Shown here: positions 12,090 to 60,146 of the stretch, one piece after another
Position numbering within the stretch: the stretch's first letter is position 1
How the letters are laid out: every line of letters begins with the position of its first letter
NCBI RefSeq assembly: GCF_000026545.1
Contig: NC_011601.1
Reading direction: 5' to 3' (one strand)
Length of the DNA: 64,000 nt
DNA from: Escherichia coli O127:H6 str. E2348/69
GTDB lineage: Bacteria; Pseudomonadota; Gammaproteobacteria; Enterobacterales; Enterobacteriaceae
Notes under the pieces: generated by a model
Told to the model about the DNA's origin: nothing
Database searches by the model: none
What the model saw: only the letters and a program-made list of their open reading frames with translations
Made by a program: the position numbers and the translations under genes

Positions 12090-12175
12090 AGAAATAAGAA
12101 AACCCTTAAGTCTGTGCGACACAGGCTTAAGGGTTTCTACCCCATCCGGCGCTTATCTCCGGCACTCACAGTGGC
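12090..12175 (-). ncRNA. Candidate small RNA (position expected for rydB): two stem-loops, the second followed by a U-rich tract on the minus strand
   Basis: Long perfect inverted repeat aacccttaag...cttaagggtt plus a second ccgg hairpin in the sufA–ydiH intergenic region; identity to RydB not confirmed. Confidence 0.35.
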
Positions 12176-12358
12176 TTAGCTCTTGAAGGGGCAATAAGGA
12201 TAATCTCATAAAGCTAACCCACTGTTTTAACACAAACTGCGATTTGTATTATTTTTGAACGTTATCAGTCGGGTAGATAGGCAGTATTAAGAAGGCCCTC
12301 GAACCTGGACGAAGATTAATCCAGGCCGATTTGGCGAACTCGCGACATTAAATCAGGA

Positions 12359-12646: not shown

Positions 12647-13057
12647 TCACAAAATGGCGGTCGTCAATCGTGAAGAACAGCACAAACGCCCTTTCTCATC
12701 GAAGATTTCAATCTGCCAGACCTGGTGACGCGAACCGAGATGCAACGGTTTGCATACGCCGCGCACCCGCCCTTCTCGTGCCGAGCGGACGTGGTTAGCA
12801 TTGATTTCCAGACCAACCACTTTTTGCTCACCTTCGGTACATAAATAACCGGCAACGGAACCGATACTTTCGGCCAGTACCACGGATGCACCTCCATGCA
12901 GCAACCCGAAAGGCTGCTTTGTCCGCGAGTCTACTGGCATTGTCGCTTCAAGGGTGTCATCACCAATATGTTCAAAGCGAATATCCAGCAACCCCACCAT
13001 GTTTCCTTCACCCATGGCATTCAGTGCTTCCAGGGTGATTTTTCGTTTCCATATCAT
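12647..13057 (-). CDS. menI: Hotdog-fold thioesterase (1,4-dihydroxy-2-naphthoyl-CoA hydrolase type)
   Basis: 136-aa ORF with LHGGAS motif; synteny (ydiI). Confidence 0.85.
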   Translation of the reverse strand: MIWKRKITLEALNAMGEGNMVGLLDIRFEHIGDDTLEATMPVDSRTKQPFGLLHGGASVVLAESIGSVAGYLCTEGEQKVVGLEINANHVRSAREGRVRGVCKPLHLGSRHQVWQIEIFDEKGRLCCSSRLTTAIL

Positions 13058-16000
13058 TTAATAATCTCCAGTAAAGCCTGCACAGGATGGCGTACCCCTG
13101 TGCCTTCAACCCGTTTTACCTGACTACGGCAGGAATATCCGGTCGCCAGACAGCGGTTACGCGGCAGTCGCTGCATAGCCTGATGCCAGGATAATTCATA
13201 GATCCCGAGCGAATTTTTATGGTTTTTCGCTTCATGTCCGTAAGTCCCTGCCATGCCGCAGCACCCCACGCTGACATTTTCCAGTTTCGCGCCAAAACGG
13301 GCAAATATTGCCGCCCATTGTGCTGGCGCGCCTGGCAAGGCGGTAACTTCGGTACAGTGACCAAAGAAATACCATGATTCACCGCTGACTGTAGCCACTG
13401 GCTGTGACTCAAGTGCGCTTGCCAGCCATTCATTTGCCAGTAAGACGTTAAACTCGCCACGCTCCTCGCCCAGAGCCAGTTTATATTCATCGCGATAACA
13501 AAGTACCAGCGCCGGGTCGACGCCTACCATTGGCATACCCAGCTTCGCCATACGGTTGAGGAAATCCGCCGTCTTTTTCGCCGTCTTCGCAAAACGATTA
13601 AGAAAACCTTTGATATGCTGGGCTTTTCCATTTGGCGAAAATGGCAGTAACACGGGCTGGAAACCTAATTTTTCGACCAGACGGACAAAATCCGCCACCA
13701 CTTGAGCATCGTAATAGCTGGTAAAGGGGTCCTGCACCACCAGCACCGTGCGCGCTTTCTGCTCTGCATTGAGAGCTTCAAGCTGTTCCAGCGTCATGTT
13801 TGCCGAGCGATGCCCCACCATTTGTTGTTGTAGCGAGGGGACCGACAGCAGCGGCAAATCAACCATGCCGATATGTTTTTCCGAGAGTTTGCGCACCAGC
13901 GGCTGGTTAATGAAGAAGTTAAAGGTTTTCGGCGCGCGTGCCATCAGCGGTGCGTAACTCTCAACCGTAGCGACGAGGTGGTCGCGCAGCGGGCGTAAAT
14001 AACGGGTGTGATAGAGTTGCAGGAAACGAGAGCGAAACTCCGGCACATCAATTTTGATGGGGCACTGAGTCGAACAAGCTTTACAGGCCAGACAGCCCGA
14101 CATCGCCTCTTTGACTTCGTGTGAGAAGTCATATTCGCCTTTATTCGCATGCCAACTATTGCGCGTGCGGGCAATTAACGTCCGCAAACTGACGCCGGAT
14201 TCAGGCAGTTCTTGTTCCAGTTTGAGTGGGTCAACGCCGCGATCCGCCAACAAACGCAGCCATTCACGTACCAGCGTTGCGCGCCCTTTCGGTGAATGAA
14301 TCCGGTTCTGGGTGATCTTCATCGACGGGCACATCGGACTACGAGCATCAAAGTTGAAGCATAAACCGTTGCCGTTACACTCCATTGCACCACGCCACTG
14401 CTGGCGTACCGCAATGGGGATCTGTCGATCGAATGTACCGCGCTTCACCGCGTCCACTTTCATCATCGGCGCATCGAGACATTCTGGCGGGCAAATCTTC
14501 CCAGGGTTGAGTCGGTTATGCGGGTCAAATACCGCTTTCACTTTACGCAGTTCTGCAAAAAGTTCCTCACCGAAAAACGCCGGGCTGTATTCGGCGCGAA
14601 AACCTTTGCCGTGTTCGCCCCACAACAAACCACCGTATTTCGCGGTAAGCGCCACTACATCATCAGAGATTTGCTTCATCAAAATCTCTTGTTGCGGATC
14701 GCACATATCCAGTGCAGGACGGACGTGCAAGACACCTGCGTCGACGTGACCGAACATACCGTAGCTTAAGCCGTGGCTGTCGAGCAGCGCGCGAAATTCA
14801 GCAATATAATCCGCCAGGTGTTCCGGCGGTACGCAGGTATCCTCAGCAAACGGAATTGGCTTAGCAGCACCTTTGGCATTGCCAAGCAGACCAACGGCTT
14901 TTTTGCGCATCGCATAGATACGTTCAACACCCGCCAGCTCGCGGCACACCTGCCAGCCGATCACTCCTGCCTGTTGGCTGGCAATCAGCTCATCAAGCCG
15001 CACACAGAGTGCATTAACTCGCTCGTCAATCAGTGCCTCATCATCACCAGCAAATTCCACAATGTTCAGCCCGAGCATCTCTTTATCAGGCACATCGGTA
15101 ATCAACTCGCTGACGGAATGCCAGACAATATCTTCCCGCGCCAGATTCAGCACTTTTGAGTCCACCGTCTCTACCGAAAGCGCCCGCGCCTCAACCATAA
15201 ACGGCGCGTTACGCAGCGCGGAGTCAAAAGAGTCATATTTGACGTTCACCAGACGGCGTACTTTAGGCAAGCGCGTAATATCCAGTCGCGCTTCGGTAAT
15301 AAAGGCCAGCGTCCCTTCTGAACCCGTCAGAATGCGCGTCAGATCGAACTCGGTCATCTCATCGTTAAAGACATGACGCAGATCGTAACCGGTAAGAAAG
15401 CGGTTAAGCTTGGGGAAGTTGTCGATGATTAACTGGCGTTGCTGACGGCAACGTTGATAAACCGTGTTATAAATTCGCCCGATTGTGGTATTGGATTTAC
15501 CCAGCGTTTCCGCCAGTTCGACGGGTAAAGGTTGCGTATCGAGAATATCGCCCCCCAACAACACCGCGCGTACGCCAAGTACGTGATCTGACGTTTTGCC
15601 ATAGACCAGCGATCCCTGACCGGATGCATCGGTATTGATCATCCCGCCGAGCGTTGCCCGGTTGCTGGTCGAAAGTTCTGGCGCAAAAAAGTAGCCAAAG
15701 GGTTTCAGGTACTGATTGAGTTGGTCTTTAATCACCCCGGCCTCAACGCGCACCCAGCCCTCTTCAGGGTTAATTTCGATGATGCGGTTCATATGGCGGG
15801 ACATATCAACAATAATCCCCTGGTTGAGCGCCTGACCGTTAGTGCCGGTGCCGCCGCCGCGGGGGGTAAAGATCAACGATGAATAGCGTTCCTGCGCGGC
15901 AAGACGGGCGATCAGCGCCACATCTGCGGTTGAACGCGGAAATACCACCGCATCGGGGAGAAGTTGATAAATACTGTTGTCAGTCGACATTGTCAGACGA

Positions 16001-16110
16001 TCGGCATAACTTGTCGCCGTATCGCCGGTAAAACCCTGTTGCTCCAGCTCTTGCAAAAAATTAAGCACCAGTTGAACGACGCCGGGTGCCTGGGAAATCT
16101 GTGGAATCAT
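13054..16110 (-). CDS. ydiJ: FAD-linked oxidoreductase with C-terminal Fe-S domain, YdiJ
   Basis: ORF-track ORF is 1042 aa; start at internal Met (MIPQISQAPG...) gives ~1018 aa. Confidence 0.85.
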   Translation of the reverse strand: MIPQISQAPGVVQLVLNFLQELEQQGFTGDTATSYADRLTMSTDNSIYQLLPDAVVFPRSTADVALIARLAAQERYSSLIFTPRGGGTGTNGQALNQGIIVDMSRHMNRIIEINPEEGWVRVEAGVIKDQLNQYLKPFGYFFAPELSTSNRATLGGMINTDASGQGSLVYGKTSDHVLGVRAVLLGGDILDTQPLPVELAETLGKSNTTIGRIYNTVYQRCRQQRQLIIDNFPKLNRFLTGYDLRHVFNDEMTEFDLTRILTGSEGTLAFITEARLDITRLPKVRRLVNVKYDSFDSALRNAPFMVEARALSVETVDSKVLNLAREDIVWHSVSELITDVPDKEMLGLNIVEFAGDDEALIDERVNALCVRLDELIASQQAGVIGWQVCRELAGVERIYAMRKKAVGLLGNAKGAAKPIPFAEDTCVPPEHLADYIAEFRALLDSHGLSYGMFGHVDAGVLHVRPALDMCDPQQEILMKQISDDVVALTAKYGGLLWGEHGKGFRAEYSPAFFGEELFAELRKVKAVFDPHNRLNPGKICPPECLDAPMMKVDAVKRGTFDRQIPIAVRQQWRGAMECNGNGLCFNFDARSPMCPSMKITQNRIHSPKGRATLVREWLRLLADRGVDPLKLEQELPESGVSLRTLIARTRNSWHANKGEYDFSHEVKEAMSGCLACKACSTQCPIKIDVPEFRSRFLQLYHTRYLRPLRDHLVATVESYAPLMARAPKTFNFFINQPLVRKLSEKHIGMVDLPLLSVPSLQQQMVGHRSANMTLEQLEALNAEQKARTVLVVQDPFTSYYDAQVVADFVRLVEKLGFQPVLLPFSPNGKAQHIKGFLNRFAKTAKKTADFLNRMAKLGMPMVGVDPALVLCYRDEYKLALGEERGEFNVLLANEWLASALESQPVATVSGESWYFFGHCTEVTALPGAPAQWAAIFARFGAKLENVSVGCCGMAGTYGHEAKNHKNSLGIYELSWHQAMQRLPRNRCLATGYSCRSQVKRVEGTGVRHPVQALLEIIK

Positions 16111-16194
16111 TATATTGACCCTTTCCTGCGGTCTGTGATGTAGGTCGATACATTGTTCTTTCAGGCTGCTGCAATAGCGCACTGAAAGGTGATG

Positions 16195-16330
16195 TTTGTT
16201 TACTCTATGGATTTCGAGTTGCAGGAAGGCGGCAAGCGAGTGAACTCCAGGAGCTTACAAAAGTAAGTGACTGGGGTGAGCGAACGTAGCCGCAGCATAT
16301 GCAACTTGAAATACAACGAGTAAATCGTTT
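16195..16330. repeat. ERIC / intergenic repeat unit element
   Basis: Contains aagtaagtgactggggtgagcg (ERIC2 primer sequence) and the partner arm gtgaactccaggagcttaca in imperfect-palindrome arrangement, between ydiJ and ydiK. Confidence 0.8.
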
Positions 16331-16498
16331 GCGTGTTGCCTGAGTTGTTGTACCACATTTTTTTCTTACACGCCCATCAGAATTAAGGGCAGAATCGACC
16401 TGTTAAAAACCGCTGAAATTGCTCATCATTATGCAGGTGAGTTTCGCGTGTTCACGTCGCGTCGACGATTTGACGCACAAAAAAGGTGAAAAGTAGTT

Positions 16499-17611
16499 AT
16501 GGTAAATGTTCGTCAGCCCAAGGATGTCGCACAAATTCTGCTTTCGGTGCTGTTTTTAGCCATCATGATTGTGGCATGTCTGTGGATTGTACAACCCTTT
16601 ATTCTCGGCTTTGCATGGGCCGGTACAGTGGTTATCGCCACCTGGCCGGTATTGTTACGTTTGCAAAAGATCATGTTTGGTCGCCGCTCTCTCGCCGTTC
16701 TGGTGATGACGCTGTTATTAGTGATGGTGTTTATCATCCCTATTGCTTTGCTGGTTAACAGTATCGTCGACGGCAGCGGCCCGCTAATTAAAGCCATTTC
16801 CAGTGGTGACATGACATTACCCGATCTGGCGTGGCTTAAAACCATTCCGGTGATTGGCACGAAGCTATATGCAGGCTGGCACAATTTGCTGGATATGGGG
16901 GGGACGGCGATCATGGCGAAAGTCCGTCCTTATATTGGCACCACCACCACCTGGTTCGTTGGGCAGGCGGCGCATATCGGGCGCTTTATGGTGCATTGTG
17001 CGCTGATGCTTCTCTTCAGCGCCCTGCTGTACTGGCGCGGTGAACAGGTGGCACAAGGCATTCGCCATTTTGCAACCCGTCTGGCAGGCGTTCGCGGAGA
17101 TGCCGCCGTGCTGCTGGCGGCACAGGCTATCCGCGCGGTGGCGCTGGGTGTGGTGGTGACGGCGTTAGTACAGGCAGTGCTTGGCGGTATCGGCCTCGCC
17201 GTATCCGGCGTACCTTATGCAACTTTGCTAACGGTGTTAATGATCCTCTCCTGCCTTGTCCAGCTTGGACCGTTGCCGGTACTGATTCCGGCGATTATCT
17301 GGCTCTACTGGACTGGCGATACCACCTGGGGAACGGTATTGTTAGTTTGGAGCGGTGTGGTTGGCACGCTCGATAACGTCATCCGCCCAATGTTAATTCG
17401 CATGGGTGCCGATTTACCGCTGATCCTGATCCTCTCTGGCGTTATTGGTGGTTTGATTGCTTTCGGGATGATCGGTCTGTTTATTGGTCCGGTTCTGTTA
17501 GCCGTTTCCTGGCGTCTGTTTGCCGCGTGGGTGGAAGAAGTCCCACCACCGACGGACCAACCGGAAGAAATTCTCGAAGAACTTGGCGAAATCGAGAAAC
17601 CGAATAAGTAA
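16499..17611 (+). CDS. ydiK: AI-2E family transporter YdiK
   Basis: 370-aa polytopic membrane ORF. Confidence 0.85.
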   Translation: MVNVRQPKDVAQILLSVLFLAIMIVACLWIVQPFILGFAWAGTVVIATWPVLLRLQKIMFGRRSLAVLVMTLLLVMVFIIPIALLVNSIVDGSGPLIKAISSGDMTLPDLAWLKTIPVIGTKLYAGWHNLLDMGGTAIMAKVRPYIGTTTTWFVGQAAHIGRFMVHCALMLLFSALLYWRGEQVAQGIRHFATRLAGVRGDAAVLLAAQAIRAVALGVVVTALVQAVLGGIGLAVSGVPYATLLTVLMILSCLVQLGPLPVLIPAIIWLYWTGDTTWGTVLLVWSGVVGTLDNVIRPMLIRMGADLPLILILSGVIGGLIAFGMIGLFIGPVLLAVSWRLFAAWVEEVPPPTDQPEEILEELGEIEKPNK

Positions 17612-17796: not shown

Positions 17797-17901
17797 ACGG
17801 TTATAAATCAACATATTGATTTATAAGCATGGAAATCCCCTGAGTGAAACAACGAATTGCTGTGTGTAGTCTTTGCCCATCTCCCACGATGGGCTTTTTT
17901 T
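17797..17901 (+). ncRNA. rprA: RprA small regulatory RNA
   Basis: Sequence acggttataaatcaacatattgatttataagcatggaaatcccctgagtgaaacaacgaattgctgtgtgtagtctttgcccatctcccacgatgggcttttttt matches remembered RprA, ending in hairpin + T-run. Confidence 0.85.
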
Positions 17902-18039
17902 TAACATTTTTCCGCTTCGCTACCTCGCCCCTCACTCTTTCCAATAATGTTGCACAAGATACTGTGACTCTCTTCAAGCCGTCAGCAGGCTGATAATGTT
18001 ATTTATATTTTATTGTTTATTTCATGCAGCCATTACACG

Positions 18040-59093: not shown

Positions 59094-60146
59094 ATGAATC
59101 TGGTGATGTCAGATATTACCCGCAACAAGCTGGGTTGCTATATGGCGCAGCAGGCGTCGCTTAATAATATTCCGGTTTCCGCACTGGTATCGCGATTTAC
59201 CGTGGAACCCTCGGTGCAGCAGCGTTTTGAAAACGCCTCAAAGGAAAGCACCGAATTTACAAAAAGAATTAACGTGATCGGCGTGACCGACCAGAAAGGC
59301 GAAAAAATCCTCCTGGACACCACCGGGCCAATTGCACGCACGAATACCGGTTATGACGGCACAAAACGCCGTAACCCGAATAACGTGGTTGATCTGAAAA
59401 ACCGCAAATACCAGTGCGAACAGGTGAACTACGACACGTTTATTTCATATCCGCAGCTTGATGCCTGGGCGGCACATCCTGATTTTCAGTCCCGCATCAG
59501 CGCACAGATTGCCCGGCAGGTGGCGCTTGACCGCATCATGATCGGTTTCAACGGCACGTCTCACGCGGATGAGTCCAACTTCAGCACCAACAAGCTGCTT
59601 CAGGACGTTAACGTGGGATGGCTGGAGCACATCAGAACCGACGCCAGCGAACGCGTTATGAATGACGTGACGCTGACCTCCCGCAACATGGACAACACCG
59701 TGGCGCACGCGGGTAAGTATGCGAACGCTGATGCACTGGTACAGGACGCGCGTTCATCCCTGCTGGATGAATGGCACAAGGAAGCTGACGACCTTGTGGT
59801 GATTATGGGGCGCAACCTGTTTAACTCGCTGCGTCTGCCCGTGCTGAACAGCATCAGCGGCCAGAATCCCAATGCGGAATTACTTGCCGGGCAGCTCATC
59901 CTGTCATCGCGCACCATTGGCGGGCTGGGCGTGTTCCTTGCACCGTTCTTCCCGGATGCAACGATGCTGATCACCTCGTTCAACAACCTGTCGATTTACT
60001 GGCAGAAAGGTTCAATGCGTCGCCTGATGAAAGACGAGCCGGAATACAACCGCATCGCCACCTACCAGTCCATCAATGACGCTTATGTCGTTGAAGACTA
60101 TGGCAAGTGCGCGATGGTTACTGGCCTGAAGTTCGCCGACAGCTAA
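59094..60146 (+). CDS. N: Major capsid protein (P2 gpN-like)
   Basis: 350-aa ORF after scaffold gene. Confidence 0.88.
   Translation: MNLVMSDITRNKLGCYMAQQASLNNIPVSALVSRFTVEPSVQQRFENASKESTEFTKRINVIGVTDQKGEKILLDTTGPIARTNTGYDGTKRRNPNNVVDLKNRKYQCEQVNYDTFISYPQLDAWAAHPDFQSRISAQIARQVALDRIMIGFNGTSHADESNFSTNKLLQDVNVGWLEHIRTDASERVMNDVTLTSRNMDNTVAHAGKYANADALVQDARSSLLDEWHKEADDLVVIMGRNLFNSLRLPVLNSISGQNPNAELLAGQLILSSRTIGGLGVFLAPFFPDATMLITSFNNLSIYWQKGSMRRLMKDEPEYNRIATYQSINDAYVVEDYGKCAMVTGLKFADS

Follow-up and report, generated by a model that had tools for sequence, protein, structure and literature searches.

An ERIC/IRU element between ydiJ and ydiK in Escherichia coli O127:H6 E2348/69, carried by one of two spacer alleles

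ERIC elements have been known since 1990-91 and are described in reviews as miniature inverted-repeat elements, imperfect palindromes of approximately 127 bp with terminal inverted repeats and TA ends; those reviews name no partner transposase for them. In Yersinia, ERICs that are co-transcribed with genes have been reported to alter transcript stability in an orientation-dependent manner, through exposure of an RNase E site (De Gregorio et al. 2005, as cited in reviews). The copies studied there occupy positions between cistrons or downstream of a gene, and the same reviews describe them as destabilising the upstream mRNA via that site. The Correia or NEMIS elements of Neisseria are alike in kind, according to reviews, being small palindromic inverted-repeat elements with TA ends that are co-transcribed and form hairpins cleaved by ribonucleases. 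Promoter and IHF-site motifs, together with their nature as RNase III substrates, are given in these accounts as features of the Correia elements, whose sequence family is unrelated to ERIC.

The copy described here resembles the ERIC/IRU family (Wilson and Sharp 2006, as cited in reviews) in its length of 126 bp, its conserved core, its imperfect palindrome and its terminal inverted repeats. It also resembles the family outlined there in being extragenic yet transcribed, in the many copies found per genome and in a presence that varies between strains. Nothing essential sets it apart. It differs from the family in an ERIC1R half with a 1-nt deletion and two mismatches, in flanks of TT and AA in place of TA, and in a strain difference that also takes in a 54-nt piece foreign to ERIC. 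With the Yersinia ERICs, as reviews characterise those, it shares its family and co-transcription with neighbouring genes as a long hairpin; unlike them, it would lie at the 5' end of its transcript with no gene upstream.

Identity and limits of the element

The window, that is the whole 64-kb stretch of DNA analysed, derives from E. coli O127:H6 E2348/69, its positions 15800-16800 being 100% identical to that genome. The element is flanked by two genes:

13054-16110, minus strand: ydiJ coding sequence, D-2-hydroxyglutarate dehydrogenase, with its start codon at 16110 (RefSeq annotation)
16499-17611, plus strand: ydiK coding sequence, AI-2E family transporter (RefSeq annotation)

To the right of ydiK the RefSeq gene order continues with rprA, ydiL and ydiM. 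The ydiJ-ydiK spacer measures 388 bp (16111-16498) in E2348/69, and no feature is annotated within it in either the E2348/69 or the K-12 MG1655 record. A search of the 64-kb window against Rfam at gathering thresholds returned no ERIC family and matched RprA and rydB alone. Both of these (rydB at 12132-12192 on the minus strand, RprA at 17797-17904 on the plus strand) scored well over the Rfam thresholds and are expected for the region.

A preliminary description of this DNA had placed an ERIC/IRU repeat with ERIC primer-site sequences between the two genes, at 16195-16330. The element was borne out by a profile HMM, by its inverted arms and by an exact ERIC2 site, with limits that the arms draw slightly tighter. 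Of the primer sites, ERIC2 held and ERIC1R did not. The following features were delimited:

16199-16324, plus strand (the ERIC2-primer sense strand): ERIC/IRU element of 126 bp, from its inverted arms, the profile HMM and the full-length consensus alignment
16199-16223, no strand assigned: left terminal inverted-repeat arm of 25 nt, 84% complementary to 16300-16324
16300-16324, no strand assigned: right terminal inverted-repeat arm of 25 nt, paired with 16199-16223
16240-16260, plus strand: degenerate complement of ERIC1R, from direct reading and the profile alignment
16261-16282, plus strand: exact ERIC2 primer sequence with 0 mismatches, within the central conserved core

The profile HMM drew on 89 ERIC copies from other loci and species, with neither the present locus nor the orthologous K-12 locus among them. 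On the 64-kb window it yielded a single match, at 16197-16325 on the plus strand (105.2 bits, E 8e-32), which covers model positions 3-132 of 135; no second ERIC copy was detected in the window by this profile. Further copies were obtained by scanning representative genomes for an 18-nt core pattern, which returned 120 loci; these lay in Superficieibacter and in Yersinia, Serratia, Citrobacter, Enterobacter, Lelliottia and E. albertii, where ERIC copies were found. None of the five core-pattern loci in E. albertii corresponds to the ydiJ-ydiK locus. Together with E. coli loci, the 120 loci supplied 122 copies, and the consensus derived from these aligns with the window copy along its entire length. 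Among the individual copies that align with it are some of Yersinia aldovae and Y. artesiana. Identity of the window copy to the cross-species consensus was 103/126 (82%), against a family median of 83%. The alignment over approximately 127 bp to which the preliminary description had looked is therefore a full-length one, and the poor alignment that would have spoken against an ERIC was not seen.

The sequences used for primers ERIC2 and ERIC1R are printed together, as a pair, in 233 papers. ERIC2, AAGTAAGTGACTGGGGTGAGCG, occurs exactly at 16261-16282 and was matched in none of 100 shuffles. For ERIC1R no match with up to three ungapped mismatches was obtained. Positions 16240-16260 read GTGAACTCCAGGAGCTTACAA, which agrees with the ERIC1R complement at 19/22 positions, with a 1-nt deletion and two mismatches, and the missing base is also visible in the profile alignment. 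Since the ERIC1R site is degenerate, the ERIC2 site is the sole intact one, and for ERIC-PCR this copy offers one primer site of two.

The element thus shows the length of about 127 bp, the full-length alignment, the core, the imperfect palindrome, the dispersed multi-copy occurrence and the extragenic position within a transcribed region that characterise ERIC/IRU, and window positions 16199-16324 are a full-length, ordinary ERIC/IRU copy. Elements of this kind are familiar, and K-12 has this copy too; the details of the locus are context, none of them surprising.

Across 5425 complete E. coli genomes the 126-bp element was found at 59,832 places; a genome carried between 2 and 20 of them, the median being 12. 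Paralogues with 87-89% identity occupy the pgk/fbaA and ybhJ/ybhI spacers of E. coli. ERIC fragments on E. coli plasmids account for 63 of the 59,832 places, for example NZ_AP038229.1 122927-122998.

Two spacer alleles and their history

A long spacer of 388 bp containing ERIC was found in 4255/5424 complete E. coli genomes. The 60 bp directly to the left of ERIC occur in the same 4255 genomes, at a single place in each, and the best ERIC match reached at least 90% in 4256 records. The remaining genomes (approximately 1169), among them JJ1886, other ST131 genomes and Nissle 1917, carry a short spacer of 213 bp without ERIC; JJ1886 and Nissle 1917 have 175 bp fewer than E2348/69 at this position. 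No intermediate form of the spacer was encountered in samples of 39 and 60 records. K-12 carries the same 388-bp spacer as E2348/69. The exact E2348/69 version occurs in only three records, the next best match being 98.0% identical. The variable presence between strains that had been put forward for this repeat therefore holds at this locus, and the comparison of the spacer across E. coli genomes, also proposed then, resolves it into two forms whose difference in length includes sequence that is not ERIC. Within E. coli the locus can serve as a clean marker with two states, found in 78% and 22% of complete genomes respectively. In NZ_CP018109.1 (E. coli MRSN346595) the 5' part of ydiK is interrupted at a point corresponding to approximately window position 16590; from query position 263 the match continues, and next to ydiJ the record annotates a hypothetical protein.

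Alignment of E2348/69, K-12, JJ1886 and Nissle, together with direct reading of the sequence, delimited the parts of the long allele:

16141-16322, no strand assigned: long-allele-specific block of 182 nt, in whose place the short allele reads AGAGATT
16142-16195, no strand assigned: single-copy non-ERIC piece of 54 nt, at one place per genome in 4255 genomes
16135-16141 and 16189-16195, no strand assigned: 7-bp direct repeat GTGATGT bracketing the 54-nt piece
16158-16164 and 16182-16188, no strand assigned: stem CTTTCAG/CTGAAAG of the 54-nt piece, a hairpin in the predicted leader fold

The 54-nt piece accompanies ERIC in every long-allele genome. Judged by this alignment, the long allele is not a clean insertion, as its 182-nt block comprises both ERIC and the 54-nt piece. 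The ends of the ERIC family consensus read TA-TACCC...GGGTA-TA, the hyphens marking the limits of the element, whereas TT and AA are the dinucleotides that flank this copy. At the junction the short allele does contain a TA (GAT-TA-ATCG), but its left flank is not collinear with the long allele, so that a clean target-site duplication cannot be demonstrated. The most probable history is that ERIC inserted between ydiJ and ydiK in a lineage early in the history of E. coli, at or beside the TA in GATTAATCG. Such an entry would have been messy, or would have taken two events, and would also have left the single-copy 54-nt piece, with the long allele and an ancestral-like short allele both persisting in E. 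coli today.

The orthologous spacers of other genera were reached through homologues of YdiK. The short allele is collinear with those of Enterobacter (199 bp), Pseudescherichia (205 bp) and two Citrobacter (213 and 205 bp); for two of these loci the species labels derive from protein-cluster names. At the junction Citrobacter reads GTCTGTGTTGTGAATTTAATCG and the short allele of E. coli GTCTGTGATGAGAGATTAATCG. No ERIC was present at this spacer in these two Citrobacter, in Enterobacter or Pseudescherichia, nor in Serratia oryzae. Because the short allele is collinear with other genera, it looks ancestral in structure and the long allele derived. The ERICs of O127:H6 and K-12 differ at 5/126 positions, with two departures from the consensus in O127:H6 and three in K-12; by this divergence the long form is evidently old, and the timing of the insertion is bounded loosely. 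Proteins 91-94% identical to YdiK proved to belong to E. coli contigs, and no divergent clade was found at this locus in the E. coli genome collection.

In Salmonella enterica approximately 51 extra nucleotides without ERIC are found at the same point of the spacer (locus L130, about 1272-1322). Their last 20 nt resemble the 54-nt piece of E. coli at 16/20 positions, a value equalled by 21/2000 shuffles. This resemblance may or may not reflect shared ancestry, and the order of events proposed above is accordingly tentative.

A diverged ERIC also occupies the ydiJ-ydiK spacer of Citrobacter amalonaticus, oriented as in E. coli (locus L132, 1142-1222 and 1308-1349). An internal insertion of about 85 bp interrupts it, and its two profile matches have E-values of 3e-9 and 2e-6; the same kind of internal insertion is found in several ERIC copies of other species. 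The C. amalonaticus element lies at a different point from that of E. coli, directly abutting the conserved ydiJ -10 block GTTGTATCACATTTTTTT, and is an independent insertion. Past mobility of the element would be read from two observations and from these only, the difference in presence and absence between strains and this independent insertion.

Position in the ydiJ leader and predicted RNA structure

Start sites of K-12 on NC_000913.3 coordinates are given in SMRT-Cappable-seq Supplementary Data 2 (PMC6131387). There, operons b1687/b1686 and b1687/b1686/b1685 (ydiJ-menI-ydiH) start at 1768914/1768915 on the reverse strand; the ydiK starts, on the forward strand, are given as 1768976 and 1769011 (PMC6131387). 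Window coordinates were obtained as the K-12 coordinate minus 1,752,575; the start table gives thrL as 147, so the transferred starts may be offset by 1 nt. The Cappable-seq 2016 supplements contained no entry for this region. The transferred positions are:

16339-16340, minus strand: ydiJ-menI-ydiH transcription start, transferred from K-12 1768914/1768915, with a possible 1-nt offset
16347-16355, minus strand: putative extended -10 element TGgTACAAC for ydiJ, from its spacing to the published start and its conserved block
16401 and 16436, plus strand: the two published ydiK starts, from K-12 1768976 and 1769011, both to the right of ERIC

The ydiJ start lies 15-16 nt to the right of ERIC, whose other end is 88 nt from the ydiJ start codon, ERIC being on the upstream side. 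With the K-12 start in this position, ERIC and the 54-nt piece would be transcribed as part of the 5' leader of ydiJ-menI-ydiH, and since both ydiK starts lie to the right of ERIC, the element would be absent from ydiK mRNA. The influence on the mRNA stability of neighbouring genes that the preliminary description mentioned is a trait reported for the family in Yersinia, and the leader would give it a concrete setting at this locus. We infer that the start used in K-12 is also used in E2348/69; it was transferred from one K-12 dataset, across a -10 and start region that is identical in the two strains, with one substitution further upstream. The extended -10 sits seven bases upstream of the ydiJ start on the minus strand and is contained in the block GTTGTAyCACATTTTTTT, which is conserved in six genera; TGgTACAAC would thus be the promoter element of ydiJ.

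A scan for promoters and terminators found nothing in or beside ERIC. A looser promoter scan returned weak sites alone, near 16403-16455 and identical in both alleles, among which a weak -35/-10 match, TTAAAA-18-CATTAT, ends at 16432, near the ydiK starts. A minus-strand promoter candidate near 16403-16455 was superseded by the published ydiJ start.

A long, G+C-containing hairpin between two divergent genes might be taken for a terminator or insulator acting between ydiJ and ydiK at the DNA or RNA level. On neither strand, however, is the hairpin followed by a T-run, and the terminator scan was negative. Moreover, the ydiJ start precedes the element in the direction of ydiJ transcription, so that full-length reads of the ydiJ operon run through the hairpin, and both ydiK starts are downstream of it. 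We consider such a role highly improbable. Even less can be said for a small protein encoded by the 52-codon ORF that runs through ERIC on the minus strand (16200-16358). The ORF is present in the mechanical ORF list, and open reading frames within ERICs are mentioned in reviews. That list is purely mechanical, though, and the ORF is wholly missing from approximately 22% of genomes. Its ATG at 16358 is moreover upstream of the ydiJ start at 16339/16340, so that the known transcript does not contain it, and translation of this ORF is to be regarded as exceedingly improbable.

As RNA, the plus strand of the element is predicted to fold with -63.8 kcal/mol (z -8.3) and the minus strand with -42.8 kcal/mol (z -4.7); the strand transcribed at the ydiJ locus is the weaker-folding one. 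A consensus structure on 91 full-length copies comprises 29 pairs, of which 95.3% are canonical, compared with 31-37% in a control with the partners slid. Sixteen of the consensus pairs show changes on both sides (compensatory changes) among these copies. For the 18 pairs outside the search core the canonical fraction was 93.2% vs 83.6 ± 0.4% in column shuffles, with 0/500 shuffles reaching the observed value. The window copy pairs at 29/29 consensus positions. Asymmetry between the strands is a feature of the ERIC family, 90 of the 91 copies folding better as ERIC2-sense RNA (family medians of -55.5 kcal/mol against -42.6 kcal/mol for the other strand), because G-U pairs become A-C mismatches on the opposite strand.

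A stable predicted hairpin of this kind could also be imagined as an independent small-RNA gene, similar to V_AS5 (RF02818, Vibrio) and Ysr49 (RF02766, Yersinia) of Rfam. Both match ERIC across their whole models, at window positions 16198-16363, with 37.4 bits (E 1.6e-6) and 25.2 bits respectively. These full-length matches fall well short of the respective gathering cut-offs (96 and 95 bits), and the element is not a member of either family. They suggest instead that the annotated V_AS5 and Ysr49 RNAs are themselves ERIC-derived, which would most likely account for the resemblance. There is, furthermore, no promoter-like site in or next to ERIC and no terminator-like site after it, and the start of the ydiJ operon is the only reverse-strand start listed in the spacer. 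The element has very little probability of being a small-RNA gene.

The two alleles would give the ydiJ transcript leaders of different length, approximately 230 nt for the long allele and approximately 55 nt for the short one, with predicted folds of -67.8 and -8.9 kcal/mol respectively. Two hairpins are predicted in the long leader, one formed by ERIC and the other by the 54-nt piece. The ribosome-binding region is predicted to fold identically in both. A pairing of ERIC positions 16221-16235 with the ydiJ ribosome-binding region was considered and rejected, as the leader fold keeps the ERIC hairpin intact and gives the ribosome-binding region the same structure in either allele.

This copy is very probably a typical, immobile ERIC, an old insertion in the ydiJ-menI-ydiH leader for which a small or neutral effect is most likely. 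The element would have been copied into the leader in its weaker-folding orientation, extending it from about 55 to about 230 nt and adding two hairpins. The structured leader would at most modulate the processing or stability of ydiJ mRNA, as is reported for ERIC-bearing transcripts in Yersinia through RNase E, and the element would otherwise be a relic of that insertion, carried along in the ydiJ leader as a passenger. An effect on ydiJ expression is inferred, and a small or neutral one appears the most likely. Nothing relevant was found in the literature pairing ERIC with ydiK, ydiJ with ydiK, or ydiJ with RNase III.

The one rival to this reading that would raise interest is that ERIC and the 54-nt hairpin have been co-opted as a cis-regulatory leader. 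Altered processing, stability or translation of the ydiJ-menI-ydiH mRNA would then produce allele-specific levels of D-2-hydroxyglutarate dehydrogenase and MenI, both alleles being kept by selection. Such a role would fit the placement of the element within the leader, to which it contributes approximately -59 kcal/mol of predicted structure, the commonness of both alleles and the age of the long one; C. amalonaticus carries an independent ERIC in the same leader and the same orientation, and ERICs alter transcript levels in Yersinia according to reviews. On the other hand, the ribosome-binding region folds alike in the two leaders, the alleles may simply follow lineage history, and many transcribed spacers hold ERIC copies without known roles. 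Co-option is accordingly regarded as unlikely. It is also decidedly unlikely, and a little more so, that ERIC has landed recurrently in the ydiJ leader (in E. coli and C. amalonaticus, in the same orientation) and that the long and short forms make up a regulatory polymorphism. Were this so, levels of D-2-hydroxyglutarate dehydrogenase and MenI would differ between K-12, EPEC O127:H6 and most other strains on one side and ST131 and Nissle 1917 on the other. Since the 5' leader that holds ERIC has been mapped, comparison of the two natural alleles would be a ready test of the effect of such a hairpin on the downstream gene.

Right beside the insertion point, at positions 16326-16334, which read ACGCAAACG on the minus strand and correspond to approximately +7 to +15 of the ydiJ transcript, a block, AATCGTTTGCG, is conserved in all genera compared. 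It resembles half of a PurR operator, the other half being absent.
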